Source: Parcubacteria group bacterium M10-OD1-1 (GTDB lineage Bacteria; Patescibacteriota; Minisyncoccia; Moranbacterales; UBA2206). Taken from it: a stretch of 64,000 nucleotides of DNA. Below the pieces are notes generated by a model, which was not told where the DNA came from, made no database searches, and worked only from the letters and a program-made list of their open reading frames with translations. Where the stretch lies: positions 4,345 through 68,344 of the forward strand of contig LSNL01000003.1 of NCBI GenBank assembly GCA_003056145.1. Reading direction: 5' to 3'. The first letter of the stretch is position 1; every line of letters begins with the position of its first letter. Positions 4,860 through 42,317 of this stretch are shown piece after piece. Position numbers and translations under genes: made by a program.

Positions 4860-5171
4860 AGTATTTACTAGCTTAATTTAGATATAAGACTAATTTTAGG
4901 CTAGCATTTATATTTCCTTATGTAAAGCTAAAAGAATTATAATTTGATTAATAATTAAATTTATAAATTCAGAATATTTAAACTACTATTTAAGGGTTGC
5001 ACTAATGCTTTATGCAAGTCAAATTCAAAAGAGTAAGCTATGTACAGAAGAATAGGGCATACAAATGATAAATAAAAGTCTGTCTTACGTTTAAGACGGG
5101 CTTTTATTATTGTGGGCGGTGTCGCCTGCTATCTACTTGACAGATATGAATAAATATGCTAGGATGTACTG

Positions 5172-5335
5172 AATAACAAATAAGTTATTTTTAAAACAAA
5201 CAAATAAATAAATTCTTTGAGGAGAGAGTTACAAACAACGAAAGCTTTATAGCGGTTGTTGTTTAAAGAAAACAGTTAAATGTTTTTCTCTCTTCAGGGA
5301 AGAAAGCATTTAACTGTTTTTTTTTATTTTAAAAA
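5172..5335 (+). ncRNA. candidate small RNA with sigma70-like promoter and intrinsic terminator
   Basis: TTGACA (5137-5142), 17 nt, TAGGAT (5160-5165). Perfect 12-bp terminator stem aacagttaaatg/catttaactgtt (5271-5282 / 5307-5318) followed by T-run 5319-5335. No ORF lies between them. Confidence 0.4.
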
Positions 5336-5439
5336 TATGAAAGACAGATTTTGTTGAAAGAATGATGCAGATGAAATGTGCTTGTTGACACAACTTAAAA
5401 TGATTAAAAGTTGTTAATCCAAGTTTTTATCTTCATCAT

Positions 5440-6640
5440 TCTCTCAATAAAGAGGAGAGAGAAGCTGTTCTTTATATCGAAATAAAATGCTGAAAATATA
5501 TACAAGACCTGCAAGCCTTGTCACTGTGTTGGATAGGTCGCCTTTCGACGGAAACCGATTGCCAATGGCACATTTTACAAATCGTTTTCGTAAGGAAATC
5601 GACTGGGAGTGAAGACTTGAACTATCTTCGCTTTCAGAAATTTCCTTATGAGCGCCTTGTTGTTTAACTCGCTGTGAGTACAACAAGACAATCTAGAGGA
5701 AAATGCTCTTTGAAAAAAAACAAAATCATCATAGGAAGCTATCACGATGGTTTTGTAAACAAAATTGGTACTTGGCAGATAGTCTGTTTGGTTACCGAAA
5801 AAATCAGGGCTAACAAATGCCCCCTTGCCGACATTTTCATGGATGTCGTGATAGCCGAGGTTTCCTAAGGAGGAAATATCATGAATCAAAGAAATACTGG
5901 GAAGGAAGTAGTGTCCTTCCTCTGGAAGGAAGAAGGACTTGATGCGATTTTTTCCGGTGTGTCGTTTAACGACACACCGGACGGCAACGTTTGCACCTTT
6001 CTTTTTAGAAAGCAAGGTGTGAACGACGTACCGATATATTATCGGTACGAAATATTTGAACGACGCGACAGGCGTCGTTCAAAAGGACTGATTTTGACAT
6101 TACTCTTTACGAGTAATGTCAGGTCTCGGGTTGAATGCGTTTCCTTTCTAAAATTTTTAGAAAGGAATGGCCTACTCATCAGAAGGGCTGATGGCCCTGC
6201 TGATGAGTACTATGCCGACCCAAGGTTTATCACCTGTCCGCGCTTTGTGCGGATAAGTGATAAAATGTCTTTGCATTCAGAATTGTTGACCCTGACAAAT
6301 GGGGAAACAATTCTAGTAGAAATCTGGGCTCACTACCCAGAATACGAAGATGAAAATGAAGGAGACTTCCGTATAAAAAACATATGCTGGTTCCCAAAGG
6401 GGCACCATAGTTTTGATACGGAGGAAAATCCTGTAATATTCGCAGGTTTCCTGCGAATATGCCAAAACGGTAATACCGTCTTTGTAGACGGTATTTATTT
6501 CAATAACCGTGGAGGGCGCCACGGTATAATCGAAGAAGCAATTGACACACCAACGGCTACCGAGTAACCCTCGGCTAGTCGACAAACGTCGAGAGGTCGA
6601 CACTAAACAAACCCCCGAGCGACGGTAAGACGCGTTCATG
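5440..6640 (+). ncRNA. hairpin-dense tract of unknown function, candidate large structured RNA or hairpin array. The strand is uncertain; plus is suggested by the downstream plus-strand terminator.
   Basis: At least 25 local inverted repeats, many perfect 9-13 bp with 3-7 nt loops. Examples are 5955-5981 (11 bp), 6027-6049 (10 bp), 6057-6081 (10 bp), 6095-6121 (11 bp), 6141-6167 (12-13 bp), 6436-6460 (11 bp), 5656-5690 (8 bp) and 5832-5851 (6 bp). GC is higher than the flanks. The chance expectation for perfect 9+ bp hairpins in about 1 kb is far below one. Confidence 0.45.
5881..6567 (+). CDS. doubtful ORF (228 aa) overlapping the hairpin-dense tract; probably not a real protein gene
   Basis: Long ORF with an apparent SD aaggagg, but that SD is itself the hairpin tttcct-aagg-aggaaa. 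The ORF is saturated with perfect hairpins, its composition is rich in F and R, and overlapping ORFs occur on both strands, consistent with stop-codon depletion in GC-richer DNA. Confidence 0.2.
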   Translation: MNQRNTGKEVVSFLWKEEGLDAIFSGVSFNDTPDGNVCTFLFRKQGVNDVPIYYRYEIFERRDRRRSKGLILTLLFTSNVRSRVECVSFLKFLERNGLLIRRADGPADEYYADPRFITCPRFVRISDKMSLHSELLTLTNGETILVEIWAHYPEYEDENEGDFRIKNICWFPKGHHSFDTEENPVIFAGFLRICQNGNTVFVDGIYFNNRGGRHGIIEEAIDTPTATE

Positions 6641-6694
6641 AAATAAAATTATCTTGGTGTGAGTCCACCTAAAAACTCACTGCAGAAAGTACTA

Positions 6695-6739
6695 GGGGAT
6701 GAGCTTTCTGTAAGTTCAAGTTCAATCATCCCCTTTTTT
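6695..6739 (+). terminator. intrinsic terminator-like hairpin
   Basis: Stem ggggatga (6695-6702) / tcatcccc (6726-6733) with a 23-nt loop, followed by tttttt (6734-6739). Confidence 0.4.
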
Positions 6740-6999
6740 CCGAAATCATCAGTTTGTTAAAAATTGGTGGTTTCAGAGAAAAGATGCTCTTTGAAAAAAA
6801 TCTACAATACCGCAAATTGGTTGTGAATATTTGAATGTGGGATTGTTTAATTGACAACTAATTTGCAGTATTGTAGAAAAAATCCAAAGCCGGCAGGGTG
6901 TCGGTGGAGGGTAAATATTAATTTGTCTGATGCAATAATGCTGAGGACAACGGCGATTTTTCGCCCCCTAACTCCGGGGCTCGGAGTGGAGGAAGTAAG

Positions 7000-7644
7000 A
7001 TGTCCAATCAAGTGATAACTTTTGATAAAGTTGTGTCTGAGGTGGTTGCCAGCAAGGCAATTAAAAGAAATAAATATAACATCTGCCGCACCTGGCATGG
7101 ATGGATATCGAAAGACGTCCTACATATTACTAGTAGCTCCGGGGCTCGGCGGCGGAAAATTTGGCATTTCCCTATTATAAGGAATGCTGGAAAGGAGATG
7201 TTTTTTAAAAACACGACGGTAACTGCTGATTGCTGGACAGTTATTCCGGCAAAACAAGAAAAAGATCCTTATGGGAGGATTTTGAGACAGTGTAAACAAT
7301 CAAAAAAATTTCTCCACAGACATCAGCCTGGAGAAGTTGTCTATCTCAAAGGGAGATGGGCATATCTTCACTGTCATGTCCCGGGAGAGTCATCGTTTTA
7401 TGTTTCGTTCGATTCGGATGAGACGATCTTCGAAGGGCCCCTGATAAATGTTCCTGGGGGGCATTTTCAATATCAGGATTGGGAAGTGACGCTGTCCAAG
7501 TCCACTTGGGCAGTTGTCAGAAAGGCGCATGCCGATTCAAACGGTCGCGTGCGTAACTTTATCGAGGCTCTCCATATTTGGGGAGAGCCGGATATAGAAG
7601 AGGTTGCCTCCGCTGTGAGGAGAGGAACATTTGGGAGGAGTTAA
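7000..7644 (+). CDS. hypothetical protein (214 aa), uncertain, within the GC-rich insert
   Basis: ATG preceded by ggaggaag SD at -7 and a hairpin actccg-gggct-cggagt. Fewer perfect hairpins than the upstream tract, and a terminator-like hairpin downstream. Composition is W/H-rich and random-like, and I recognise no family. Confidence 0.3.
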   Translation: MSNQVITFDKVVSEVVASKAIKRNKYNICRTWHGWISKDVLHITSSSGARRRKIWHFPIIRNAGKEMFFKNTTVTADCWTVIPAKQEKDPYGRILRQCKQSKKFLHRHQPGEVVYLKGRWAYLHCHVPGESSFYVSFDSDETIFEGPLINVPGGHFQYQDWEVTLSKSTWAVVRKAHADSNGRVRNFIEALHIWGEPDIEEVASAVRRGTFGRS

Positions 7645-7659
7645 AAAGCGGACTTTTGT

Positions 7660-7700
7660 GCAGGATTGATGATTAGTTCTCATTCAATCCTGCCTATTAT
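7660..7700 (+). terminator. terminator-like hairpin downstream of ORF 7000-7644
   Basis: Stem gcaggattga (7660-7669) / tcaatcctgc (7684-7693). The downstream U-tract is weak. Confidence 0.3.
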
Positions 7701-8227
7701 TGGGATTTTAATTTCTTAATTTAAATTGAAATTCCATAATGGGAAATTGTTTATATAAATATAAACAATACATACAAAATATCTCGGTAATGTGAGGTGT
7801 TTTGAGTGAAATGAGATTTGATTTGTAAAACTTTTCGTCTTTGTAATTTTACGAGGACAAGAAACTCTCTCCTCGAGATTTTATGGATTAAATTTCTTAC
7901 TAAACATTTACTCAAACATCTCATATTGTTGAGATAAAAACATCACCTTTAACACAATAGCTTTGGCTTAGTGGTAATGTAGTCTATCGTTGTTGAAGGT
8001 TTTTTTTGTTTCTATGGAATCGGGAATTATTACAGAAGCAGTGACTGCAAAAACAGTGCGCGCTTTATATATAAAGAAAGTTCAAATATCGTTCAAAAGG
8101 TATCGCTATCTTTGAATTTTTGCGTTTTTGGTAGAATTTTGAGTGGGGCTTTGCTCCGCGCAAAGTGCGACCGTGTCTCGTATACACAGGAAGAAATGAA
8201 AATCCCCCAAAACGCTGAAATTGTAAT

Positions 8228-8317
8228 TGGCGGAGGCGGGAGGATTCGAACCTCCGATACCGGTTAAGGTATAACGCTTTTCGAGAGCGCCCTATTCAAC
8301 CGCTCTAGCACGCCTCC
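8228..8317 (-). tRNA. tRNA-Ser (anticodon CGA), type II with long variable arm
   Basis: The reverse complement reads GGAGGCG...CTAG/D-loop...anticodon stem GCGCT/AGCGT with loop CTCGAAA (anticodon CGA)...long variable arm...GGAGG-TTCGAAT-CCTCC...CGCCTCC-G-CCA. The CCA is encoded. Confidence 0.8.
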
Positions 8318-8467: not shown

Positions 8468-9049
8468 ATGTTAGAACAGGAGGAAAAATCAATTCATCAA
8501 TCTTTAGGAGTAGCTAACTCTTTTAAGTTTTTAAGTCCTCAAAAAATAGTTGATCAAATTGAGGTTAATCCAGGAATGAAAATAGCTCATTTTGGTTGCT
8601 CTACTGGTTACTTTACTTTTCTATTAGCTCAAAGAGTTGGAGGTAGTGGTCAGGTTTATGCTCTAGATATTATATCTTCTAAACTAGAAATTTTAAAGAG
8701 CCAGATTAAATTACAAGGAATTAGAAACATTGCAATAAAAAGAGTGAGTTTAGAAAATAAGAATGGTTCTGGCTTGGAGAATGAAAGTATGGATTGGGTA
8801 ATAATGGTTAATATGTTATATCAAAATAATCAAAAGAATAAAATCATCAAAGAAGCAGAGAGAGTCTTAAAACCTGGTGGAAAAATTCTTTTAATAGACT
8901 GGGAAACAGGAGACGATAGAATTGGACCAAAAAAACTTTCACGAATTTCTAAAGGAGATTTAATTAAAATAGTCAGAAGATACAGTTTAGGAATTAAAAA
9001 AGAAATTGAAGTTGGAAATTTTCATTTTGGACTAATACTAGCCAAATAA
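8468..9049 (+). CDS. class I SAM-dependent methyltransferase
   Basis: 193 aa. Motif I-like GCSTGYFT and VYALDI, and the post-I region KPGGKILLIDW, which is the methyltransferase type 11 fold. Confidence 0.65.
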   Translation: MLEQEEKSIHQSLGVANSFKFLSPQKIVDQIEVNPGMKIAHFGCSTGYFTFLLAQRVGGSGQVYALDIISSKLEILKSQIKLQGIRNIAIKRVSLENKNGSGLENESMDWVIMVNMLYQNNQKNKIIKEAERVLKPGGKILLIDWETGDDRIGPKKLSRISKGDLIKIVRRYSLGIKKEIEVGNFHFGLILAK

Positions 9050-9054
9050 AATAT

Positions 9055-10482
9055 ATGACATTAAAAACAAAAAAAAGTAAAATATTTTTCGCTACAGTTT
9101 TTATTTTTGGATTGATTATTTTATCTGGCTGTGGTTTCAAACAAAAAACAGATCATCAATATAATTTAAGTTTAGAAATCTGGGGTCCTTTTGATTACGG
9201 GGATGCTTTAAGAAAAGTTTTTAATAGTTATAAAAAAATAAATCCTAATATTTCTAGTCTTGAGTATAAAAGAATTCCAATTAATACTTATCAAAAAGAA
9301 TTAACAGAAGCTTTAGCAGCAGGACAGGGTCCAGATATTTTCTTTATTCGTAATGACTGGGTACCGAGTTTTGCAGATAAAATAGTTCCTGTTAAAGAAA
9401 TTCCAGGGGTTATTAGTGAGAAAAAGTTTAGAGCTAATTTTATAGATGTAGTGGCTAATGATTTTTTAGTTAAAGGAAATATCTATGCGATGCCTCTTTC
9501 GGTAAATACTTTGGGTTTATATTATAATAAAGATCTTTTTAATCAAGCTGGCATAGTGGCACCACCAAAAACTTGGGATGAATTTTCTGAGGATGTCAAA
9601 AAACTTACTAAAATTAATGCTTTTGGGGAAATAATTCAATCAGGAGCAGCTATGGGGACAGCTTATAATATCAATCGTTCTACGGACATATTAAATCTCT
9701 TGATGTTGCAAAATCAAACTAAAATGATTGATCCACGAGGACAAGTGCTTTTTCAAAAATCAATTTCTGAAAATGGAAAAAGTATTTTTCCTGGAGAAAA
9801 CGCGCTAGCTTTCTATACTCAATTCGCTAACACTAGTTCTCCAGAATATACTTGGAATTCTCAGCTGCATGATTCTATTGATGCTTTTTCTGAAGGAACA
9901 GTTGCGATGATGTTAAATTATCCTTGGAATGTTAAGGTTATAAAAGAGAAGGCACCGAAGCTTAATTTTGCCATTGCACCAGTTCCTCAAATAAAAGATA
10001 AGCCAAAAGTTAATTTTGCTAATTATTGGGGACTAGCGGTTTCTAAAAATAAGACTCCTCAAAGTAATCCATATGGACAATCTAAAAAAGCAGTGGTAAT
10101 TAGTAGTAATACTCGGTTAAAAGAAGCTTGGACTTTTTTAACATACTTAACTACTAAGCCAGATGGAACTTTTAATAATAAGGCTAGTACAAAAGTTGGG
10201 CAAGTTACAGAAGCTAATTTTGATCCTGCTAAAAGTTGTTTAACTCAAACCGGTGAACCAGCTGCTAGGCGTGATTTAATTAAAGAGCAAAAAGATAATC
10301 CGACTATTGGTGTTTTTGCAACAGATAATTTAATTGCTCAAAGCTGGATAGAGGTTGATCCTTCTTCTATTGAGTCAATTTTTGCTGAAATGATTGATCA
10401 AGTTAATAAAGGACAGGCAACAGTGGCTGGAGCTATTAAAACAGCCGCTCAAAGAGTTCAAATATTATCCAATAATAATTAA
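9055..10482 (+). CDS. ABC transporter extracellular solute-binding lipoprotein (family 1, sugar-type)
   Basis: 475 aa. Signal peptide plus lipobox LSGC and an SBP_bac_1-like sequence. No permease or ATPase is adjacent. Confidence 0.65.
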   Translation: MTLKTKKSKIFFATVFIFGLIILSGCGFKQKTDHQYNLSLEIWGPFDYGDALRKVFNSYKKINPNISSLEYKRIPINTYQKELTEALAAGQGPDIFFIRNDWVPSFADKIVPVKEIPGVISEKKFRANFIDVVANDFLVKGNIYAMPLSVNTLGLYYNKDLFNQAGIVAPPKTWDEFSEDVKKLTKINAFGEIIQSGAAMGTAYNINRSTDILNLLMLQNQTKMIDPRGQVLFQKSISENGKSIFPGENALAFYTQFANTSSPEYTWNSQLHDSIDAFSEGTVAMMLNYPWNVKVIKEKAPKLNFAIAPVPQIKDKPKVNFANYWGLAVSKNKTPQSNPYGQSKKAVVISSNTRLKEAWTFLTYLTTKPDGTFNNKASTKVGQVTEANFDPAKSCLTQTGEPAARRDLIKEQKDNPTIGVFATDNLIAQSWIEVDPSSIESIFAEMIDQVNKGQATVAGAIKTAAQRVQILSNNN

Positions 10483-10486
10483 AAAA

Positions 10487-11410
10487 ATGAAAAACCTTAT
10501 TAAAAAAGTTCCTCTAATCTTTAGCACATTATTAATCAGTAGCCTCTTTCTTTTTTTTGGAGTAGCTAACTCGCAAGCTTCTACTGCTGAATGTACTGCT
10601 CAAGGAGGTATCTGCGCTACAGTAGGAGGAAGTGGTTGTTTAAGTGGTAGCCCTATTGCAAATATAACTTGTTCTGGTGGGGTAACTTGTTGTACGAATG
10701 TAACTCCTAAGAGTTCTACTATTTGTTGTCAGGTCTCTGGACAAGGTTGCGGAGAAATTAACGGAAGCACTTGTCCAACAGGAATGAATTTTTTAGGTAC
10801 TGGTTCTTGCTCTAGCTTTTCTGCCTGCCAAATTAAGACTTCAACAGGGTCTTCTGCTAATACTAATAATGGGAATTCAATTACTTTTTCTAATCCGATT
10901 GGATTTACTACTTTTGCTGGCTTATTGAACTCCATTCTAAATCATATGATGGGTATTATTGCTACTATTGCAATAGTCTTTATGATTCTGGGAGGTATAA
11001 TGTATATGATGTCTGGTGGCAATGAAGGAATGGTAACTAAAGCTAAAAAAACTTGGACTGGAGCTATTATTGGTCTAGCGATTGCGTTGGCTTCGCCAAC
11101 TTTTTTAAAGGAAATTCAAAAAATTCTTAATGGAGGAGGAACAGGAGGGAGCGCTCAAGCTTGGGTAAGTAAAGCGTTAACACTTAAAGAAATTGCTATT
11201 AATGTTGCTAACCTATTGTTGTCAATTTTAGGTATTCTTGGTATAATTGCCTTAATAATTGGAGGTGGAATGTATTTAACTGCCTATGGTGATGAAAGAA
11301 AAATTGATACTGGAAAAAAGATAATCACCTTTGCGATTATCGGTATTGTCGTAGCTCTCTCAGCAGTTATTATCACCAAACAAGTTTCCGTTATTTTAGG
11401 AGCAAATTAA
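10487..11410 (+). CDS. secreted Cys-rich protein with duplicated TrbC/VirB2-like pilin-family C-terminal domain
   Basis: Start chosen at the internal ATG 10487 (MKNLIKKVPLIF..., signal peptide). About 20 Cys in the N-domain, then two copies of the motif hydrophobic helix-GG-MY(L/M)-G-(D/N)E-K-hydrophobic helix, as in the three downstream paralogs. Confidence 0.5.
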   Translation: MKNLIKKVPLIFSTLLISSLFLFFGVANSQASTAECTAQGGICATVGGSGCLSGSPIANITCSGGVTCCTNVTPKSSTICCQVSGQGCGEINGSTCPTGMNFLGTGSCSSFSACQIKTSTGSSANTNNGNSITFSNPIGFTTFAGLLNSILNHMMGIIATIAIVFMILGGIMYMMSGGNEGMVTKAKKTWTGAIIGLAIALASPTFLKEIQKILNGGGTGGSAQAWVSKALTLKEIAINVANLLLSILGILGIIALIIGGGMYLTAYGDERKIDTGKKIITFAIIGIVVALSAVIITKQVSVILGAN

Positions 11411-11478
11411 ATTAGAACAAAAGAAAGTTTAATAGGATAGTTAAAAAATAAATATACAAAATAGAAAGGAGGTGTTAT

Positions 11479-11832
11479 ATGAAAAATAAAATTAGAATAA
11501 TGATTTTCTCAGTAGCCTCAACTACCTTGACTTTTCCAGCTTTGGCTTTAGCTCAATTTAGCGCTCCTGCCGGAACTGGACTACCTGTTAATTCAGTTTA
11601 TGATATTATTTCAGGAATAATGTTTTGGTTGTTGGCAATAGTGGGGATAGTGGGTGTTATTGGTTTTGCTATTGCAGGAATCCTCTACTTAACAGCAGCG
11701 GGAGATGATTCTAGGATTCAACAGGCCAAAAGTGCAATGCTCTATTCTATTATTGGAGTAATTGTAGCTTTATCTGGTTTAGTAGCAATCCATTTTGCTA
11801 GCGGGTTATTAGGTGGTCAAAGGCAATTCTAA
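11479..11832 (+). CDS. TrbC/VirB2-like pilin-family small membrane protein
   Basis: 117 aa. Signal peptide and conserved core WLLAIVGIVGVIGFAIAGILYLTAAGDDSRIQQAKSAMLYSIIGVIVAL, which is two transmembrane helices around an AGD motif. An RBS aaaggagg lies upstream. Confidence 0.5.
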   Translation: MKNKIRIMIFSVASTTLTFPALALAQFSAPAGTGLPVNSVYDIISGIMFWLLAIVGIVGVIGFAIAGILYLTAAGDDSRIQQAKSAMLYSIIGVIVALSGLVAIHFASGLLGGQRQF

Positions 11833-11952
11833 TTAAAGAATTCTTTGAAATTTCAAAACAAAAACAGATTGTTTTAATAGTCTGTTTTTGTTTTTTGTTT
11901 TTTTATTGTATAATATAAGCGAGGTATTATTAAATAAATTTAAAATAAAAAA

Positions 11953-12348
11953 ATGAAATATTTGAAATTAGGAATTCAAAAAATAAAGCAAGGGAGATAT
12001 TTATTAGGTAGTTTTTTTGGACTTAATCTTAATTCTTCTAGTGGAGGTGGAGGGAACGGTAGTGGTTGGAATCCAGGGAGTCTTAGTCAATTCAATCTTC
12101 CTAATGCTTCTATTTATAGTATTATAGAAAATATTTTAAATTGGTTATTGGGTATTTTGGGAATTATTGGAGTAATAGGTTTTGTGATTGCTGGAATTTT
12201 TTATTTAACAGCAGCTGGAGATGAATCTCAAATTACTAAAGCTAAAAGTGCTTTGAAATATTCTATTACGGGTGTCATCGTGGGAATAGCTGGTCTAGTG
12301 ATTATTCAAGCAGTTAACGCAATGCTTAACGGAACTTCTCTTTTTTAA
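11953..12348 (+). CDS. TrbC/VirB2-like pilin-family small membrane protein
   Basis: 131 aa. Gly/Ser-rich N-region and the same conserved C-terminal core (NWLLGILGIIGVIGFVIAGIFYLTAAGDESQITKAKSALKYSITGVIVG). Confidence 0.5.
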   Translation: MKYLKLGIQKIKQGRYLLGSFFGLNLNSSSGGGGNGSGWNPGSLSQFNLPNASIYSIIENILNWLLGILGIIGVIGFVIAGIFYLTAAGDESQITKAKSALKYSITGVIVGIAGLVIIQAVNAMLNGTSLF

Positions 12349-12352
12349 ATTT

Positions 12353-13039
12353 ATGAAAAATCTTACTAAAAAAATTATAAAAAACTTAATTAACTATAAT
12401 AATAAAATATACAAAGTATTTTTTTTTAGTAGTTTTATTCTAGGAGTCAGTCTTTTTTTTGGAATAAATATTTCTCAAGCAGACTATATTTGTTTAAATC
12501 AGAGTAGCGCTTGTAGTGGTAATTGGGCTGATATTAACGCTTGTGGTGTAGGTGTTTGTAGTACAGGAGAAAAATGTTGTTCAATAGCGACAAAAACGAG
12601 CACGAATACAAGTACAAACACAAATTCTTCTACACCTAGCAAAGCAGGTAACACTTGGAAAAATCCAGATAATGCAACTTCCAATTCTAATGCAGTCCCT
12701 ATTTCTTTAGGTAATCAAAATAATAATACTTCAGCTAATAATGTTTCTGGAAGTGGACAACTTAATATTCCAACATTTAATCTTCCTAACCCACAAGGAG
12801 GAATTAAAGAAATTGCTCAAAATCTATTGAATTGGTTGTTGGGTATTTTGGGTATTATAGCGATAATCTCTTTTATTATAACTGGTTTACAATATTTTAT
12901 GGCAGCGGGAGATGAACAAATAGTTCAATCAGCTAAAAAGAACATGACTTATTCTATTTTAGGGATTATTGTGGCTCTCTCAGGCTTTATAATCATTCAA
13001 GCTATCGATGCAGCCTTACGAGCTACATCATTCTTTTAA
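12353..13039 (+). CDS. TrbC/VirB2-like pilin-family protein with Cys-rich and Thr/Asn-rich N-terminal region
   Basis: 228 aa. Signal peptide, Cys cluster (CLNQSSACSGNWADINACGVGVCSTGEKCCS), TSTNTSTNTNSS low-complexity linker, and the same C-terminal pilin-like core. Confidence 0.5.
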   Translation: MKNLTKKIIKNLINYNNKIYKVFFFSSFILGVSLFFGINISQADYICLNQSSACSGNWADINACGVGVCSTGEKCCSIATKTSTNTSTNTNSSTPSKAGNTWKNPDNATSNSNAVPISLGNQNNNTSANNVSGSGQLNIPTFNLPNPQGGIKEIAQNLLNWLLGILGIIAIISFIITGLQYFMAAGDEQIVQSAKKNMTYSILGIIVALSGFIIIQAIDAALRATSFF

Positions 13040-13049
13040 TCAGTTTTGT

Positions 13050-13078
13050 TTGACATTCTTCAAAAAAAATGCTAGAAT
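13050..13078 (+). promoter_or_regulatory. sigma70-like promoter upstream of nusA
   Basis: TTGACA (13050-13055), 17 nt, TAGAAT (13073-13078). A GAAA-tetraloop hairpin lies downstream at about 13100-13130 in the leader. Confidence 0.45.
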
Positions 13079-13164
13079 GAAAGTGTTAGTTAATGGAGAT
13101 AAAGGGTTCGCGAAAGCGAACTTTATTTGTTAAATAGACCTATTTTAATTTTTAATAAAATCTT

Positions 13165-14565
13165 ATGACAAGAAAAAAAGTAAGTTCTCAAAAAGAAGAA
13201 AAAAAAGATAAAGCTGAATTTGGGAGTGCTATTGCACAAATTTGTGAAGAAAAAGGAATTTCCAAGGAAAAAGTTGTTGAAACTATTGAAGCTGCTTTAG
13301 CAGCTGCTTATAAAAAAGACTATGGCAAGAGAGGTCAAAATATCCGTTCTGTTTTTAATGAAGTTTCTGGTTCAGCCAAATTTTTCTTAGTTAAAGAAGT
13401 AGTAGATGAATCTACGCGGGAGTTTCCTATTGAAACAGAAGAAGATGATGAAGAGCAATCTAAGGAAAGTAAAAAAATTTCTTTCAGAAAAGAAGTAAAA
13501 AATGAAAATGAGGAAGAAAAAATTGCTAGATTTAATCCAGAAAGAGATCTTCGCTTAGAAGAAGCCAAAAAAATCAAAAAAGATGCTCAGGTAGGAGATA
13601 TTATTGAAACAGAATTAGAACAGAAAGAAGACTATGGGAGAGTCGCTGCTCAAACAGCTAAGCAGGTTATTATTCAAAGGATTAGAGAAGCAGAAAGAGA
13701 TGCTATGTTTGAAGAATATAAAAATAAAGAAGGAGAAGTGGTCAATGGTGTAGTGCAGAGAATGGAAGGAAGAAATATTTTTGTAGATTTAGGTAAATCT
13801 ATTGGCGTTCTTTTTCCTAGCGAACAAATTGAGAGAGAAGATCATAGAATTGGTCAGCGAATTAAAGTTTATATTGCTAATGTAGATGCTGGCTCTAAAG
13901 GACCAGGGATTACCCTTAGTCGAGTTCATCCAGACATGGTAAAAGTTTTGTTTGAGTTGGAAGTTCCGGAAATTTTTTCTGGAGTAGTAGAAATAAAATC
14001 TATTGCTAGAGAAGCTGGGCAAAGAACTAAAATTGCCGTTTTTTCTCAGGAAGAAGGAGTAGATCCTATTGGCTCTTGTGTTGGTCAGAAAGGAACTAGA
14101 GTACAAGCGATTATTGATGAATTAAATGGAGAAAAAATTGATATCGTTCTTTGGAATGAAAATCCTGAGAAATTTATTTCAGCAGCTTTAAGTCCAGCTA
14201 AAGTTTTAAGAATAGATTTAGAGGAAGGGAGAAAGGAAGCCGTTGCTACTGTTCCAGAAGATCAGCTTTCTTTAGCGATTGGGAAAAGAGGTCAAAATGT
14301 TAGATTGGCAGCTAAATTAACGGATTGGAAAATTGATATTGTAGGAGTTAGTCCAGGAGGAGAAGAAATTAATCCAGAAGAAGTAGCTAAAAAAGAATCT
14401 GTAGAAAATATTGAAAAAACAGAAGATGATAAAGAGCTAAATGAAAAAAATAGTCAAAATAAAGTTGAGAGTACAGACGATTTAAAAGATGCAGAAAAAA
14501 TAAATAGTTCAGTAGAAACAGAAAAATCAGTGGACGATGAGTCAAAAGAAGAAACTTTAAAATAA
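13165..14565 (+). CDS. nusA: transcription termination/antitermination factor NusA with acidic N- and C-terminal extensions
   Basis: 466 aa. S1 domain and tandem KH domains (GSCVGQKGTRVQAI, GKRGQNVRLAAKLTDWKIDI). Confidence 0.85.
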   Translation: MTRKKVSSQKEEKKDKAEFGSAIAQICEEKGISKEKVVETIEAALAAAYKKDYGKRGQNIRSVFNEVSGSAKFFLVKEVVDESTREFPIETEEDDEEQSKESKKISFRKEVKNENEEEKIARFNPERDLRLEEAKKIKKDAQVGDIIETELEQKEDYGRVAAQTAKQVIIQRIREAERDAMFEEYKNKEGEVVNGVVQRMEGRNIFVDLGKSIGVLFPSEQIEREDHRIGQRIKVYIANVDAGSKGPGITLSRVHPDMVKVLFELEVPEIFSGVVEIKSIAREAGQRTKIAVFSQEEGVDPIGSCVGQKGTRVQAIIDELNGEKIDIVLWNENPEKFISAALSPAKVLRIDLEEGRKEAVATVPEDQLSLAIGKRGQNVRLAAKLTDWKIDIVGVSPGGEEINPEEVAKKESVENIEKTEDDKELNEKNSQNKVESTDDLKDAEKINSSVETEKSVDDESKEETLK

Positions 14566-14596
14566 ATAATGAAGGGGTAACTAAAGGTAAAAAATT

Positions 14597-15547
14597 ATGG
14601 AAAATAAAAAATCAAAATTAAATCGAGTGATTGTTATCGGACATAAAAATCCTGATACGGATTCTATTGTTTCTAGTATAGTAGCTCAAAAATTTTTTGA
14701 GAAAACTGAAAAAATCAAAACTAAGGCTTTTAGAGCTGGATCACTTAATAATGAAACTAGATTTATTTTGAATAAATTTAAAGTAAATAGCCCTGAACTA
14801 TTAAAAAAAATTAAACTAACTGATGAAATAATTCTGGTTGATCATAATGAAAAAACTCAGATAGCTGAAGCTATAAATTTTTCGCAAGTAATTAAAATTA
14901 TTGATCACCATAAAGTTTTTATTCAGACGGAAAAACCTTTGAGTATGAGAGTAGAACCTTTAGGTAGTACAGCCTCACTTTTGGCTAAGATGTATCAAGA
15001 AGCAAAAAAGAAATTATCTAAGCTAGAAGCTAGTTTGCTTCTATCTGGTATTATCTCTGATACTTTGAATTTGGTTTCTCCAACTACTACCACAGAAGAT
15101 AAAAAAATAGTTAGAGAACTTAATAAAATAGCTAAACTAAATTTAAAACAACTGGTCAAAGAAATGTTTTTAGCTAAATCTAGTTTACAAGGGTTATCAA
15201 TAGAGGATATTATTTCTCAAGATTATAAGCAATTCCAAATGGAGGGAAATAAAGTAGGTATCGGAGTTTGGGAAACGGCTAGCCCGAAACTAGTAGAAGA
15301 AAAACAGGCAGAAATTTTTAAGAAATTAAAAATTAAAAAACAAAAAGAAAAGTTAAGCTATCTATTTTTTTTCGTGGTTGACATTATTAAACAATTTAGT
15401 GTAGCTTATATTATTAGAGAAGAAGAAGCTCAAATAGTTCAAAAAGCTTTTGGCGGTAAAGTAAAAAATAATTTGTTAACTATTAAAAATGTTGTTTCTA
15501 GAAAGAAACAGATTGTTCCTCAAATCGAGGAAATTTTAAAAAAATAA
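14597..15547 (+). CDS. ppaC: manganese-dependent inorganic pyrophosphatase (family II, DHH-DHHA2)
   Basis: 316 aa. VIGHKNPDTDSI, LVDHNE and IIDHH are the characteristic family II PPase motifs. Confidence 0.65.
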   Translation: MENKKSKLNRVIVIGHKNPDTDSIVSSIVAQKFFEKTEKIKTKAFRAGSLNNETRFILNKFKVNSPELLKKIKLTDEIILVDHNEKTQIAEAINFSQVIKIIDHHKVFIQTEKPLSMRVEPLGSTASLLAKMYQEAKKKLSKLEASLLLSGIISDTLNLVSPTTTTEDKKIVRELNKIAKLNLKQLVKEMFLAKSSLQGLSIEDIISQDYKQFQMEGNKVGIGVWETASPKLVEEKQAEIFKKLKIKKQKEKLSYLFFFVVDIIKQFSVAYIIREEEAQIVQKAFGGKVKNNLLTIKNVVSRKKQIVPQIEEILKK

Positions 15548-21920: not shown

Positions 21921-21992
21921 GCGGGTGTCGTATAGTGGCTATTATATCAGCCTTCCAAGCTGAGGAGGGGGGTTCGATTCCCCCTACCCGCT
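21921..21992 (+). tRNA. tRNA-Gly (anticodon UCC)
   Basis: Acceptor GCGGGTG/TACCCGC. Anticodon stem TCAGC/GCTGA with loop CTTCCAA (anticodon TCC). T-arm GGGGG-TTCGATT-CCCCC and discriminator T. An AU-rich hairpin plus T-run follows at about 21995-22035. Confidence 0.75.
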
Positions 21993-22498
21993 CAAAAATA
22001 AAAAAACTCTGGACTGGCTCTGGAGTTTTTTTCTTTCTGTTAGTAGAATGGAGGATTGAATAGATAAATACAAACTAGAAAAGATACAAAAGAATTTTTA
22101 TAGAGAACGCTGATAAATTTGAGTAAGTGGGAATTTGGCATTAGCTAGAACAATGAGATTGAATTTATTGAGGCGAGATGAAACTTTCTTGACACTTAAA
22201 AGGTTGTTTAAGCTTTTGTTATTTTAGAGTAAAAATAATATTTGAAATAAATTATTGTACGAAAAGTAGTAATGGTATTTTATTAAGGGAGATGATGTTA
22301 TAATCTGTATTTAGAATAAAGTTTTAGCTAGAATAAGGTGTAAATATTAAGCTATTCTTTGGGTGAGGTGATAAAAGCTTGACAAGATTTTGTTTATCTG
22401 CTAGGGTGAACTTTAAAGGTATAAAAAAGAAAGTTATTTAACAATCATTGCCTAGGAAGGAGTTTCCTGGGTTAAAAAACTAAAAAAGGAGAGCGGTT

Positions 22499-23347
22499 AT
22501 GAAAAAAGAATTGTTACTGGTGTGTCTGGTGTGTTGTCTAATGGTTTTTCCAAGTCAAAGTTTTGCTGATTCGTCAGGCGTTGGAATCGCTGGCGCTCAG
22601 GCTGTTATTAACGGAGGGGATGTCCAGGTGAATCCTGGGCAAGTTGTGTCTCCAAGTGCGAATGCGAATCTGAGTATCGATTCGCATTCGAAAGTGAGCA
22701 ATCGTAATTTTTTGCAGACGGGATATCCAGCGGCCCCAGCGCCGATGACTTACTTTGGCCCCTGGAAAAAGGGACTACCGTATAATGTAATCCAACTTGC
22801 AGTTGGATCGGTATGGAAGTGGGCAGGAATGAGGAAGGTATCTTCCAGTAGTGCTAAAGCACTGTTAGAAGATATCCAACATCCATTTCCGCCGACGGCA
22901 GAAATAAAAGTTGTCTCCCCTGAGAAAGGGGAGGGAACCTTTGTCGGCAATATTGTTGTCCTAGTTGACAGCAATCAAGCGAGCTTTAACGCTCGCAACA
23001 TAGCTCTAAAAGTAGCCATGAAGGCTGGTGCCGACCAGCTGGAAATCTATTCCAACAATTACATTCAGAAGCCAACTAGCTCTGGTTGGCATTTCGGTTT
23101 TGGCGGTGGTGCCTCGGGCATCATCGGCAATGATAGCACATCAATTGCAGGCTCAGGAGGAACCGGATTTGGATCCTCCAGCCTTCATTTGGCGAGCCTT
23201 CCATTTATTAAGGCCCGTCTTTGGAGGTCAGCTACTGCAGTTGATTTGGCCAGCGTCAGCGAAGACGAAAGCTATGCACCGGCGGTCAAAGCCAAATCTT
23301 CTAATGAGGATTGGCATATAAAAGACTTAAGTAATTTTGACAATTAA
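22499..23347 (+). CDS. secreted protein of unknown function (GC-rich, likely horizontally acquired)
   Basis: 282 aa. Signal peptide MKKELLLVCLVCCLMVFPSQSFA, SD ggagag upstream, and a Gly-rich C-region. Composition contrasts strongly with the flanking AT-rich genes. No family recognised. Confidence 0.5.
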   Translation: MKKELLLVCLVCCLMVFPSQSFADSSGVGIAGAQAVINGGDVQVNPGQVVSPSANANLSIDSHSKVSNRNFLQTGYPAAPAPMTYFGPWKKGLPYNVIQLAVGSVWKWAGMRKVSSSSAKALLEDIQHPFPPTAEIKVVSPEKGEGTFVGNIVVLVDSNQASFNARNIALKVAMKAGADQLEIYSNNYIQKPTSSGWHFGFGGGASGIIGNDSTSIAGSGGTGFGSSSLHLASLPFIKARLWRSATAVDLASVSEDESYAPAVKAKSSNEDWHIKDLSNFDN

Positions 23348-23472
23348 CAAAAAAGGAGGTGATTTTCAGAATTTTCAGTAAGTAACACGAGTAACATAAC
23401 ATTCTCCATTCCTAGTTGGGATGGAGGTAATTATGGGACATTCCCGTGTCCCGAACAAAAAAGGAGAAAGTC

Positions 23473-23901
23473 ATGAAAAAGATGTTATCAAAAATGGCAG
23501 TATCGATGTCAATTATTGCCCTGATTATGGTTGCCATCCCGGCTCTTGCCCAATCAGGAGGAAGTGTGGAGGGAGGTAATTCGTCCTGGCTGTCAGGCTT
23601 TGATAATGGCATTACCCACATCTCGGCCAATCAACGATCCTGGCAACAGACAGTTATCCAGGTACCCGGTCAAACATTTAACGCCGTTTCAAACAGCAAC
23701 ACCGGGTTCCAGCTGAATGCTGCCGATGGCGTAGCCGCCGCCGAAACAACTACAGATATAGGTTTTTACACTAATTCTAGTGGAAACCTGGGAGCCTTTT
23801 CTGATGCCAATGTGGCATCGATCGCTGCAGGTAACGCCATGAGCATTACCTGGGCAGCCTCAAATTCTTCCCTGAGCCAATATGGTGGCGGGGAGCGATA
23901 G
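23473..23901 (+). CDS. secreted protein of unknown function (GC-rich)
   Basis: Start set at ATG 23473 (MKKMLSKMAVSMSIIALIMVAIPALA signal peptide) with SD aaaggag 7 nt upstream. The listed ORF begins at an upstream GTG. A strong terminator follows. Confidence 0.45.
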   Translation: MKKMLSKMAVSMSIIALIMVAIPALAQSGGSVEGGNSSWLSGFDNGITHISANQRSWQQTVIQVPGQTFNAVSNSNTGFQLNAADGVAAAETTTDIGFYTNSSGNLGAFSDANVASIAAGNAMSITWAASNSSLSQYGGGER

Positions 23902-23919
23902 TCTAAAGGTTCTGCTGAT

Positions 23920-23960
23920 GCCACCAAGATATCTAATATCTTGGTGGCATTTTTTTTTAT
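23920..23960 (+). terminator. intrinsic terminator
   Basis: 12-13 bp perfect stem gccaccaagatat / atatcttggtggc with a short loop, followed by a run of 9 T. Confidence 0.7.
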
Positions 23961-37683: not shown

Positions 37684-38727
37684 ATGAAAGAATCTAAAAA
37701 AGAGAAAAACATCAATGCGGTTATTGATGAAATTAAAGAAAGGTTTGGCGAGGGAGTAATTATGAAATTAGGTGACATCAAAAAAGTAGATGTTGCTTCA
37801 ATTCCGACTGGATCTATCTCTTTGGATATTGCCTTAGGAATTGGTGGTATTCCTCAAGGGAGAGTAGTAGAAGTTTATGGACCAGAATCCTCTGGGAAGA
37901 CTACGCTAACTCTCCATATTATTGCTAATGCTCAAAAAGCAGGAGGAGTAGCTGCTTTTATTGATGCAGAGCATGCGTTAGATCCAGAATATGCTAAAAA
38001 AATAGGAGTTAATATTGATAATCTTTTAATTTCTCAACCAGATAATGGTGAACAGGCTTTGGATATTGTAGAAACTTTAGTTAATTCAGGAGAAATAAGT
38101 GTTATCGTGATTGACTCAGTAGCCGCCTTAGTACCGAAGGCAGAGATTGAAGGAGATATGGGGGCTCATCATATGGGAACTCAAGCTCGATTAATGTCGC
38201 AAGCTTTAAGGAAATTGACAGCTATTATTGCTAAATCTAATTGTACAGTTATTTTTATCAATCAGATTAGAATGAAAATCGGTGTAGTCTTTGGTAATCC
38301 AGAAACAACAACTGGAGGAAATGCTCTAAAGTTTTATTCTTCGGTGCGAATTGAGGTTCGTCGTTCAGCCCAAATTAAAAAAGCTGATGATATTGTAGGC
38401 AATAGAACTAAAATTAAAATTGTTAAAAACAAAGTAGCTCCACCATTTAAAACAACAGAATTTGATATTATGTATAATGAGGGTATTTCAGCGTCAGGAG
38501 ATATTTTAGACACAGGAGTTAAATATGAGATTATCAACAAGAAAGGAAATTCTTATTCTTTTAACGAAATAAAATTAGGCGTAGGGAGAGAAAAAGCTAA
38601 ACAAACATTAAAAAGTAATTTAGAGATTATGCAAGAAATTTCTAAAAAAATCTATGTTAAATTAGATGAGATAGAAGCGGAAAAAGAAAAAGAAACAGAA
38701 ACAGAAAAAGAAAAAGAGCAAAAGTAG
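37684..38727 (+). CDS. recA: recombinase RecA
   Basis: 347 aa. Walker [10 protein letters not shown] and RecA L1/L2 loop regions. Confidence 0.9.
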
Positions 38728-38823
38728 TTTCTGATTAATCGGCTGTAAGATTTCTTTAAGGGCATAGTCATAATGGTTATGTCCTTTTGCTAGAGGCTAA
38801 ATTCACCTTTTTCTACAAATGGC

Positions 38824-38852
38824 TTGACAGGATTTTTATTATATGCTATACT
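38824..38852 (+). promoter_or_regulatory. near-consensus sigma70 promoter
   Basis: TTGACA (38824-38829), 17 nt, TATACT (38847-38852). It lies about 100 nt upstream of the lipoprotein gene. Confidence 0.55.
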
Positions 38853-38952
38853 AAACTTTAAACTTGAAGAAAACAGTAAAGTTCCTTTGATAAGAAAGTA
38901 GGAGTGCATTTCGCGCTAAATTCCACACAATATATAACACAGGAGGAGAGAA

Positions 38953-39447
38953 ATGAAGAAATTTACCATGATTTCAGCTATAGTTGTGATGAGTTGTTTT
39001 ATTGGTCTTATGGGTTGCAGGAGATTCACTCAACCAAAGGTCAGCAAGAAAATGGAAAGGGAGATGATCTCTAGCATATACATGGCTCCACCGTTAGTGT
39101 GGGTGGGATTACCTACTTCATGGATGGGGGGAATGGGAGGAGAATACTGTAAAATAGTTGAGCTCAATGCGTTCAGCTATGAAGTAGGGAAATCTCTAAA
39201 AGAAACTAACGGGGGCAAGCTCCCTGAGATGCTGGGCGCGCAATTCGAGAACGCATGGCCAGTAACTGCCCATGCGACTGGGATAGCGGGAGTCCAATGG
39301 CTCCCAAGAGGGGAAGGGAAGTTTAGTTATGTTGGAGGCAACAGTGGGAAACGATGGGTAAAAAAGAAGTTTAGTGGGGAGTGTCAGTTTATGCTGTATC
39401 ATGATATTTATGGCAAATGGAGGCTGGTACGCAACTGGCAGAATTAG
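38953..39447 (+). CDS. lipoprotein of unknown function (GC-rich insert)
   Basis: 164 aa. SD aggaggag, signal peptide plus lipobox LMGC, and GC-rich relative to recA and ndk. Confidence 0.5.
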   Translation: MKKFTMISAIVVMSCFIGLMGCRRFTQPKVSKKMEREMISSIYMAPPLVWVGLPTSWMGGMGGEYCKIVELNAFSYEVGKSLKETNGGKLPEMLGAQFENAWPVTAHATGIAGVQWLPRGEGKFSYVGGNSGKRWVKKKFSGECQFMLYHDIYGKWRLVRNWQN

Positions 39448-39704
39448 GAGCGCGACATATTGCGCTGATTGTTAAAGCCTTGATCATTATTTTTGGTTAA
39501 GGTTTTTTATTATGAAAATAATATAAGTTGTTTTCTAAAAGTCAGATTATGCAAGATTTTCACTTTTTCTTTTCGCATTTTCTTGCGGGAAATTGTCGGG
39601 TCTGTTAGAATAATTGTGACGTAAGATTATCTCCTAGGGTTTGATTGTCCAATTCATTGGAGCAATTGAAGCGGGAGTTTTTAATTAAATTAAATTTTAA
39701 AAAT

Positions 39705-40313
39705 ATGAAAAATCATCCATCAAAAGAAAGAACATTAGTAATTATAAAACCAGATGGAGTGCAAAGAACTTTGATTGGTGAAATTATTAAGAGATATGAA
39801 AGAGTAGGATTAAAATTAATAGGGATTAAAATGCTAGTAGCCCAAGAGGATTTTATTGAAAAACATTACACTCTTGATCCACAGTGGAGAAGGGTAACTG
39901 GAGAAAAAACTATCGAAGGCTATAAAAGTAAAGGGTTAACTCCTCCTTCCGAAGATCCTTTGGCAATTACGGAAAAGATTTTAGTTGGATTAAAAAAATA
40001 TATGACTAGTGGTCCAATCATTGCTATGGTTTGGCAAGGTGCTAATGCAGTCAAATTAATTCGTAAAATTACTGGAGGAACAGAGCCATTAACTTCTGAT
40101 GTTGGTTCTATTAGAGGAGATTTTGTAGTTGATTCATATAAAATTTGCGATGAAGATAATCGATCAGTTAGAAACTTAGTTCATGCTTCTGGCTCAGTAG
40201 AAGAAGCAGAAATGGAAATCAACCATTGGTTTAAAAAAGAAGAAATTATTGATTATCGTTTGGTACAAGAGCAAATTCTTTATGATGTCAATTTAGACGG
40301 TATTTTAGAATAG
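39705..40313 (+). CDS. ndk: nucleoside-diphosphate kinase with internal insertions
   Basis: Start set at the internal Met (MKNHPSKERTLVIIKPDGVQR). NDK motifs IKPDG, MTSGPIIAMVWQG, IRGDF and active-site NLVHASGS are present, with about 35-aa and about 10-aa insertions relative to canonical NDK. The listed ORF begins 60 nt upstream. Confidence 0.65.
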   Translation: MKNHPSKERTLVIIKPDGVQRTLIGEIIKRYERVGLKLIGIKMLVAQEDFIEKHYTLDPQWRRVTGEKTIEGYKSKGLTPPSEDPLAITEKILVGLKKYMTSGPIIAMVWQGANAVKLIRKITGGTEPLTSDVGSIRGDFVVDSYKICDEDNRSVRNLVHASGSVEEAEMEINHWFKKEEIIDYRLVQEQILYDVNLDGILE

Positions 40314-40337: not shown

Positions 40338-40370
40338 AAAAAATCTCCTAAAATTTAGGAGATTTTTTAT
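40338..40370. terminator. bidirectional intrinsic terminator between ndk (+) and rpmB (-)
   Basis: Perfect stem aaaaatctcct / aggagattttt with loop aaaattt and A/T runs on both sides. Confidence 0.65.
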
Positions 40371-40412
40371 TTCTATTTAGCCACTTTCTATTTAGCCACT
40401 TTCTATTTAGCT
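40369..40412. repeat. 15-nt tandem direct repeat, about 2.5 copies (tatttagccactttc)
   Basis: The run ttctatttagccactttctatttagccactttctatttagc overlaps the rpmB stop codon. Confidence 0.6.
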
Positions 40413-41390: not shown

Positions 41391-42317
41391 ATGAGCAAAA
41401 AAAAATATGATTTAATAATAATTGGGGCAGGACCAGCTGGAATGATGGCTTCTATTTATGCTTCTCGTTACGGCATTAAACATTTGGTCATCGGAGGTAT
41501 CCCAGGTGGTTTAGTGACTCAAACTCATAAAATTGGTAATTGGCTAGGAACAGAAAGTATTTCTGGAATGGAATTCGTGCAAAAAGCGGAACAACATGTT
41601 AAAAGTTATCAAACTGAAATATTAAATAATTTAGTAAAAAAAATTAAAAAAGATAAGTCATCAGGATTTGAAATTTTTTTAGAAAATCAAGAAAAAAAAG
41701 AAACTAAAGCTATTATTTTTGCTGTTGGAACGAAACATAGATGTTTAGAGGTGCCTGGCGAAAAGGAATTATTAGGGAAAGGTGTTTCGTATTGTGCTAC
41801 TTGTGATGGATTTTTCTATAGGAATAAAACAGTAGCAGTGATCGGTGGAAGTGATAGTGCTGTTTCGGCAGCTCTTTATTTGGCAGATATAGTTCAAGAA
41901 GTTTATTTAATTTATCGAAAAGAAAAATTAAGAGCGGAGAATTTTTGGGTTGAGGCAGCGGAAAAAAATCCAAAGATTAAAATTATTTATCAAACTAAGG
42001 TTAAAAAAATAATTGGAGAGAGTAAGGTAGAATCCTTGGAATTGGATAATCAATTTGAAAATTTAACCCAAATTAAAGTAGAAGGAGTTTTTATTGAGAT
42101 TGGAGCTGTACCAGCCGTTGAATTAGTTGAAGAAATAGGAGTAGAGTTAGACGACGAAGGTTATATTAAAATTAATTCTGATGGTTCAACTAACATTTCA
42201 GGTATTTGGTCAGCTGGGGATATTACAACAGGTTCTAATAAATTTAAACAGATTATCACGGCATCAGCAGAAGGAGCCGTTGCTGCTCAAAGTGTTCAAA
42301 AATTTTTAAAGAAATAA
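41391..42317 (+). CDS. trxB: thioredoxin-disulfide reductase
   Basis: 308 aa. FAD motif GAGPAG, redox-active CATCDG, and NAD(P)H motif GGSDSA. Confidence 0.8.
   Translation: MSKKKYDLIIIGAGPAGMMASIYASRYGIKHLVIGGIPGGLVTQTHKIGNWLGTESISGMEFVQKAEQHVKSYQTEILNNLVKKIKKDKSSGFEIFLENQEKKETKAIIFAVGTKHRCLEVPGEKELLGKGVSYCATCDGFFYRNKTVAVIGGSDSAVSAALYLADIVQEVYLIYRKEKLRAENFWVEAAEKNPKIKIIYQTKVKKIIGESKVESLELDNQFENLTQIKVEGVFIEIGAVPAVELVEEIGVELDDEGYIKINSDGSTNISGIWSAGDITTGSNKFKQIITASAEGAVAAQSVQKFLKK

Follow-up and report, generated by a model that had tools for sequence, protein, structure and literature searches.

The DNA analysed here is a 64,000-nt stretch of Parcubacteria group bacterium M10-OD1-1 (the window; positions are counted along its whole length), and its subject is ORF164, a gene for a 164-amino-acid prolipoprotein between recA and ndk. 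We put at about 80% the probability that positions 38790 to 39582, approximately, are a lineage-specific monocistronic cassette, composed of a promoter, a leader, a ribosome-binding site, the lipoprotein open reading frame (ORF) and a terminator, that lies in a short ancestral spacer between the recA terminator and the ndk promoter. ORF164 is a real protein-coding gene. It is a member of a very rare lipoprotein family that has no name, has a coding sequence foreign in composition to the surrounding chromosome, and is lacking at this site in relatives. An earlier sequence-only reading had taken the gene to be horizontally acquired cargo with a strong promoter of its own, and its foreign composition, its restriction to this lineage and its own promoter and terminator bear this out.

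The gap between recA and ndk measures 977 nt in the window, with the recA stop codon ending at 38727. The recA intrinsic terminator at 38758..38789 (+ strand, as are all features of this locus given below; a 13-bp hairpin followed by UUUU; -14.6 kcal/mol, z -2.2) forms the left limit of the insert. The right limit is a putative ancestral ndk promoter at 39583..39611 (TTGCGG, 17 nt, TAGAAT), of which the -35 element has only three of the six consensus positions; it was assigned by eye and by MAFFT alignment with two related loci, L083 (TTGCGT-17-TATAAT) and L084 (TTGCAA-17-TAAGAT). A conserved block, GTTTTTAATTAAATT, lies between this promoter and the ndk start codon, which is the ATG at 39705 and not the TTG at 39645 of the listed 222-amino-acid ORF (39645..40313), the Ndk proteins of relatives being 202 amino acids long. 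In L083 the recA terminator directly abuts the ndk promoter. Since these two elements bound it, the inserted DNA extends from about 38790 to 39582 and is close to 0.8 kb in length.

The gene order FtsK-RodZ-RecA-Ndk-L28-M50 is kept in the relatives found through Ndk (79-82% identity), and the spacer between recA and ndk is 138 nt in L083, 98 nt in L084 and L085, and 83 nt in L104-L106. The spacer is compact and holds no gene remnant at five loci, which represent three or more related lineages. These gaps of 83-138 nt, set against 977 nt in the window, agree with the earlier claim of an insert between two AT-rich core genes, and the comparison of synteny found an empty junction in relatives, with the lipoprotein not conserved at this locus across the lineage. 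The closest representatives in the Genome Taxonomy Database found through RecA (at most 76% identity) keep FtsK-RodZ-RecA, and ndk is not downstream in them. Another relative, represented by a contig in JGI 3300075153 and known from its gene table only, carries a 1264-amino-acid gene with no Pfam hit at the recA-ndk junction. Because this gene is unrelated to ORF164, the site appears to have been used repeatedly and may be one where insertion recurs. In a further relative, from the Logan assembly SRR5198902, the ORF immediately ahead of ndk encodes 109 amino acids; the contig is short and ends before recA.

The same organism, at 99.6-100% identity, is also found in GCA_003056095.1 (locus L001), in the Logan assemblies L002 and L093-L101, and in GCA_006243105.1. 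Both junctions of the insert are identical in three independent assemblies, so that it is not an assembly artefact. An exact 13-nt direct repeat, AGATTATGCAAGA (38624-38636 and 39544-39556), brackets the recA tail and the insert, with no similarity past the 13 nt and, on a rough estimate, about 0.1 occurrences expected by chance. It was rejected as an attachment (att) site on the ground that its first copy is ordinary recA coding sequence conserved in relatives; the repeat is either a microhomology used in insertion or a coincidence.

In base composition ORF164 is clearly richer in GC than its neighbours, as had been noticed from the sequence alone. Its GC content is 45.7% against 31.1% in the rest of the window, and its GC content at third codon positions (GC3) is 0.49 against 0.187 (standard deviation 0.028, maximum 0.267) for 59 host ORFs, a z-score of about 10.8. 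The excess is limited to the body of the ORF: the promoter and leader (31% GC), the 3′ untranslated region with the terminator (34%) and the distal spacer (25%) are all host-like. Among five genome-derived codon models (host, L083, L084, L087 and L104), ORF164 fits that of the host worst, and its codon use is nearest to a uniform model (-1.52). A chimeric origin, in which a host-like signal peptide is joined to a foreign mature domain, was considered and is not supported (GC3 0.22 versus 0.45, Fisher p=0.08; in the islet 2 ORFs described below the two values are 0.11 and 0.64).

The elements of a lipoprotein gene that the sequence-only reading had listed were all located at the positions it gave. 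ORF164 occupies 38953..39447 and begins with MKKFTMISAIVVMSCFIGLMGC, in which two lysines are followed by a 16-residue hydrophobic core and by L-M-G-C, with the cysteine as residue 22 (Cys22, 39016-39018) behind a signal peptide of residues 1-21. A signal peptide should combine basic residues with a hydrophobic core 7-22 residues long, and the sequence MKK followed by FTMISAIVVMSCFIGL conforms to type. Compared with the lipobox pattern [LVI][ASTVI][GAS]C, positions -3, -1 and +1 fit, and the methionine at -2 is outside this strict consensus. Methionine at that position falls inside the wider set of PROSITE PS51257. Two native, AT-rich genes of the window carry canonical lipoboxes as well, namely SBP_bac_1 at 9055 (LSGC) and Amidase_2 at 24017 (FSGC). 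They indicate indirectly that this organism uses the lipoprotein pathway, and the ORF164 product should therefore be a surface-tethered alpha+beta binding domain.

The gene has its own signals for expression. A sigma-70-type promoter at 38824..38852 is composed of TTGACA (38824-38829), a 17-nt spacer and TATACT (38847-38852), with an extended -10 TG at 38844-38845; it agrees with the consensus at 11 of 12 positions, and no other site between 37500 and 40500 reaches 10 of 12. The 5′ leader (38853..38952, about 100 nt) is unstructured and includes the Shine-Dalgarno sequence AGGAGG at 38941-38946, which stands 6 nt ahead of the ATG. A riboswitch or attenuator in this leader was ruled out, as its fold is no better than that of shuffled sequences (z +0.85) and it has no Rfam match. 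Downstream, the terminator scan found an intrinsic terminator at 39474-39506, annotated here as 39474..39512 (a 13-bp hairpin and a U-run), preceded by a small GC hairpin at 39449-39466; the fold of 39448-39520 has -22.9 kcal/mol (z -4.1). The GC-rich islets of the window were also ruled out as ribosomal or other structured RNA: at Rfam gathering thresholds only three tRNAs were found in the window, and an Rfam search by E-value of 38600-39800 returned noise only.

Searches for homologs showed that the protein is rare. A word-indexed search of 5.8 billion clustered proteins returned only the ORF164 protein itself, while exhaustive HMMER against 1.8 billion representatives found six relatives. 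The best is P0122 (E=9e-20; full-length identity 35%), and the E-values of the others range from 1.7e-9 to 8.6e-5. A profile search added P0128. A degenerate DNA pattern made from the family motif matched all known members and nothing else among 101 loci, and it revealed one further member in two sediment metagenome contigs. The homology search thus defined a rare family, of which about nine members of 139-164 amino acids were found, and named no donor. No hits were obtained in Pfam or PHROG, and the only NCBIfam match was below threshold (16.7 bits versus a cutoff of 60) and confined to the signal-peptide region.

Conservation extends to the lipobox cysteine and to the motif GKSLKxxNGG[RK]LPE..WP, and all members have in common its wider form G-x-S-[LIM]-[KR]-x-x-N-[GN]-G-[RK]-[LM]-P ... 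W-P. Most carry a lipobox at the aligned position (LQAC, VCSC, VIGC, LASC or LLAC); in P0122 its place seems to be taken by an ordinary signal-peptidase-I site. Together with ORF164, P0122 makes up a subgroup that has an insertion of about 19 residues and lacks the cysteine pair of the other members. With the family alignment, the AlphaFold confidence score (predicted local distance difference test, pLDDT) rose from 37 for the single sequence to 78, and the mature domain of about 142 residues is predicted to adopt an NTF2/cystatin-like alpha+beta fold. A Pfam scan of eight members found no family of that clan: nothing appeared at or below E=0.01, and up to E=1 there were only three unrelated weak matches, each in a single member. 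The family profile matched no PDB chain at E up to 10.

One homolog, P0126, is found in locus L087 (GCA_021788105.1, a genome of 41% GC), where a promoter and a terminator of its own make it a stand-alone unit. It lies between two tandem nucleotidyltransferase/HEPN toxin-antitoxin pairs (6375-7904) and, directly downstream of it, a cluster of TrbL_3, PrgI, TraC-like and VirB4-like genes (8599-15249) that resembles a type IV secretion system (T4SS). In the window, four tandem T4SS_pilin genes (PF18895, about 10500-13039) follow a gene for a solute-binding lipoprotein (9055-10482), and this array means that the organism has type-IV-secretion-like surface machinery.

Two features of the locus are new and were not foreseen in the sequence-only reading: the promoter of ORF164 is strain-variable and deletable, and about 60 nt of it are homologous to a promoter elsewhere in the window. 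BLAST and alignment show that a segment of 119 bp (38805..38923), holding the whole promoter and most of its leader, occurs in both the window and L002 but is missing from L001, a strain 99.6% identical. It consists of 110 bp and the second copy (38915-38923) of the 9-bp direct repeat GCTAAATTC, the first copy of which is at 38796..38804, at the breakpoint of the strain difference; the two copies, 119 nt apart, flank the indel exactly. No promoter-like site is left on the + strand upstream of ORF164 in L001. The difference is most likely a repeat-mediated deletion in L001, by slippage or recombination; an insertion with a 9-bp duplication is a less likely but conceivable alternative. Without the 119-bp segment ORF164 is left with no recognisable promoter, and its expression would be expected to differ between strains. 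The gene itself differs between L001 and the window by two single-nucleotide polymorphisms (SNPs) in 495 nt, both at third positions and synonymous.

The promoter-leader module of ORF164 (38822..38884) is homologous to 22377-22436, upstream of the first ORF of a second GC-rich islet (islet 2). The two align with 47 of 62 columns identical (76%), well past the -35 and -10 consensus, and the score of 46 compares with 18.6 ± 2.6 for shuffled sequences (maximum 31) and with 29 for the next best match in the window. As the similarity spans 38822-38884 only and not the whole variable segment, the two modules do not have common ends. No terminal inverted repeats were found that would make the 119-bp segment resemble a miniature inverted-repeat transposable element (MITE) or an insertion sequence, and its sole related copy in the window, at islet 2, shares 62 internal nt.

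The sequence-only reading had further proposed that three GC-rich islets of the window, of which the ORF164 insert is the third, are cassettes, possibly from a common donor. The five long islet ORFs have GC3 values in a common range of 0.43-0.49, and each islet has a promoter with a perfect -35 and an extended -10 element. The form TTGACA-N14-TGnTAnnnT occurs at five sites in the window against 0.03 expected: at the start of each islet (5137, 22379 and 38824, as TTGACA-N14-TGCTAnnnT) and ahead of nusA and tuf. Because nusA and tuf also use it, it is the host's own strong-promoter form. The same form is found in other loci of the candidate phyla radiation (CPR) and ahead of the L087 homolog. 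The common donor was not demonstrated, and the islet proteins are unrelated: BLASTP and tblastn for paralogs of ORF164 among the proteins of islets 1 and 2, or for pseudogene copies in the window, gave nothing below E=0.1. The k-mer comparison suggested earlier did not discriminate a donor either, as segments of such small length give di- and tetranucleotide signatures that do not rise above noise. Islet 1 alone is clearly non-host in dinucleotide signature (delta* 145 versus 56 ± 20), while the value for islet 3 (581 nt, delta* 124) is inside the spread of host chunks (102 ± 36).

In codon-usage likelihoods, which also took in the other islets, the islet ORFs fitted the host worst of the genome models. 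The donor cannot be inferred from codon use, since that of the islet ORFs is close to unbiased, and no donor can be named, because the family also exists in AT-rich relatives, as P0122 shows. The donor was probably another mid-GC bacterium and quite possibly another CPR lineage; relatives of the lineage span GC3 values of 0.18-0.53, which makes a CPR donor compositionally plausible. A bolder proposal, which we regard as improbable, is that the three islets represent one undescribed route of domestication, in which blocks of foreign ORFs are wired to a portable promoter-leader module of host type. If this were true, gain and loss of the 119-bp segment would be a heritable ON/OFF switch of surface or secreted proteins between strains of an episymbiont.

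The other two islets have features of their own. In islet 1 (5040-8220) a terminator-like hairpin is closely followed by TTGACA-N14-TGCTAGGAT (5137-5165), with which the islet starts, and then by about 740 nt without a convincing ORF on the + strand. Its ORFs at 5881-6567 and 7000-7644 (GC3 0.43 and 0.44) have no signal peptide and no family hits, and the islet ends at a tRNA-Ser gene (8228-8317, - strand). Islet 2 (22040-23960) begins right after a tRNA-Gly gene (21921-21993), and its proteins, encoded at 22499-23347 and 23446-23901 (GC3 0.43 and 0.49), have signal peptides and no family hits. Independent assemblies break inside islet 2, at 23076, 23499, 23555 and 23613.

Several findings weigh against an acquired lipoprotein cassette with a deletable promoter. 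Methionine is an unusual residue at position -2 of a lipobox, and neither lgt nor lspA is among the genes of the window, which covers only 64 kb of the genome. The closest homolog, P0122, is on a contig of 32.5% GC and has a host-like GC3 there (0.30). The T4SS-like neighbourhood is found for one of four informative homolog contexts, the others being a caspase-ankyrin gene, unannotated ORFs and a CapA-like gene. At islet 3 we found neither integrase nor transposase, no att site, no terminal inverted repeats and no tRNA next to it. Among the usual marks of a genomic island, the insert shows atypical composition and an empty site in L083, L084 and L104-L106, and it shows no recombinase, no insertion next to a tRNA and no flanking direct repeat other than the 13-nt match. 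Such a lack of mobility genes would suit a native but fast-evolving ORF164 that was present in the common ancestor, was lost from the sampled relatives and became rich in GC locally. The contig of P0122, which is AT-rich and CPR-like and uses the same promoter grammar, and the SNP density of ORF164, which is like that of the genome (2 in 495 nt versus about 0.4% overall), point the same way. Native descent would nevertheless require loss without remnant at the five loci with 83-138-nt spacers, and it leaves unexplained a GC3 of 0.49, 10.8 standard deviations above the 59 host ORFs, when even tuf and the ribosomal protein genes reach only 0.14-0.2. We know of no local process that raises the GC3 of a single ORF while sparing flanking non-coding DNA, which here is at 25-34% GC, and we consider native descent quite unlikely.

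A second possibility, slightly less remote, is that ORF164 is cargo or a remnant of a conjugative, prophage or MITE-like element and that the 119-bp segment is a small mobile insertion with a 9-bp target duplication. The exactness of the 9-bp repeats, the related module at islet 2, the position of P0126 between toxin-antitoxin pairs and a T4SS-like cluster, and the tRNA genes that abut islets 1 and 2 would all be in keeping with such an element. Slippage between the 9-bp repeats is nevertheless the simpler account of the indel, as the 110-bp segment has no terminal inverted repeats and its resemblance to islet 2 stops short of the ends. Moreover, neither integrase nor transposase is found in or beside islet 3, and phage, plasmid or viral origin was rejected: tblastn gave no match at the protein level in collections of phages and plasmids, nor did a scan of viral contigs, and PHROGs and a fold search of BFVD were negative too. 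It might also be supposed that ORF164 is not a functional protein gene at all, being a chance ORF in GC-rich non-coding or structured-RNA DNA, or an assembly chimera. Its rather flat GC1/GC2/GC3 profile (0.46/0.42/0.49), the lack of hits in Pfam, PHROG and, above threshold, NCBIfam, and the word-indexed search that retrieved the protein alone could be read in this way. Homologs with a conserved motif and lipobox effectively refute it, and the confident family-based fold prediction, the purely synonymous changes between strains, the absence of an Rfam match and the identical junctions in three assemblies leave it hardly credible. An acquired cassette remains our preferred account of the locus.

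On this account the host sigma-70 RNA polymerase would transcribe ORF164 from the near-consensus extended -10 promoter, and the unstructured leader with AGGAGG would allow efficient translation. The precursor would be exported by the Sec pathway and then lipidated and cleaved at Cys22 by Lgt and LspA, leaving an alpha+beta domain of about 142 residues anchored on the outside of the cell membrane, where it may serve as a binding module. The likeliest class of function, in our view and with low confidence, is one of protection or interaction at the surface of the cell, such as immunity or inhibition, entry exclusion, or an accessory function in a type-IV-secretion-like system. Little is known of the surface proteins of CPR bacteria (Patescibacteria), which live attached to other cells. 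ORF164, strongly promoted, acquired and presumably variable in expression between strains, is a candidate for a part in host interaction or in defence. It also brings to light a new and very rare family of lipoproteins, which has a conserved motif and a predicted fold, and the shared, deletable promoter module offers a testable handle on how foreign genes become expressed in a reduced genome.

The surroundings of the insert are those of a core chromosome of an uncultured, ultra-small and AT-rich (31% GC), Parcubacteria/Moranbacteria-like CPR bacterium. The genes around it include infB, rbfA, nusA, rpoB/C, ftsK, a RodZ-like gene, recA and ndk, and farther along are rpmB, an M50 peptidase gene, trxB, rpsL/G, fusA, tuf and the S10 operon. 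The flanking genes were confirmed by Pfam (RecA, E=5e-138; Ndk, E=1e-38), and the nearest public proteins, 76% identical for RecA and 82% for Ndk, come from sources labelled Parcubacteria or Moranbacteria. Of about 40 SNPs between the window and L001 in 15 kb, 21 fall in 200 nt (37708-37906) at the 5′ end of recA, and 6 nt (38680-38685) are missing from the Glu/Lys-rich recA tail; together these look like a recombination tract in recA. There is also a 15-bp strain indel at 40370-40384, in the convergent terminator region of ndk and rpmB. The trxB gene (41391-42317) sits between the M50 peptidase gene and rpsL, which are adjacent in L083 and L104; as its GC3 (0.18) is host-like, it would be an older rearrangement or insertion.

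Compared with known systems, the locus resembles integration hotspots and islets in having conserved flanks, variable content (empty, ORF164 or the 1264-amino-acid gene) and atypical composition. It differs from a classical genomic island in being a single gene of less than 0.8 kb without integrase, tRNA or marker repeats. As a protein, ORF164 is like lipoproteins processed by Lgt and LspA in its positive N-terminus, hydrophobic core and L-M-G-C with Cys22, a type of signal that native genes of the window have too, while methionine at -2 is uncommon among them. The predicted architecture, in which N-terminal helices pack against a long, curved sheet of antiparallel strands, is like that of NTF2/cystatin-like cone proteins, including the VirB8-like TraE of pKM101 (5i97), TcpC (3ub1), TraM of pIP501 (4ec6), PrgL (7aed) and DotI (3wz4). 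Like VirB8-like proteins, ORF164 is predicted to be extracytoplasmic and membrane-anchored, and one homolog adjoins a TrbL/PrgI/TraC/VirB4-like cluster. Unlike them, it has a predicted lipid anchor and a cleavable lipoprotein signal in place of a bitopic N-terminal transmembrane helix, and it forms its own transcription unit between recA and ndk, with no T4SS genes nearby. It also resembles no Pfam family and no PDB chain by sequence or by profile.

Exclusion and immunity lipoproteins offer a further comparison. Surface lipoproteins with such roles are known from mobile elements, for example TrbK and TraT in entry exclusion and YddJ of ICEBs1. Together with the colicin M immunity protein Cmi (2xgl), they resemble ORF164 in being small, stand-alone, strongly promoted, acquired and strain-variable, with a membrane-tethered domain. 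No sequence relationship between them and ORF164 is evident. ORF164 differs in that no toxin, phage or conjugative genes are linked to it in the window, and its function is one that we infer. The case is a fairly ordinary gene acquisition, clean and well documented, which leaves current understanding unchanged: it combines known kinds, an accessory lipoprotein and a hotspot islet, with two mildly unusual features, a deletable promoter and a shared promoter module.

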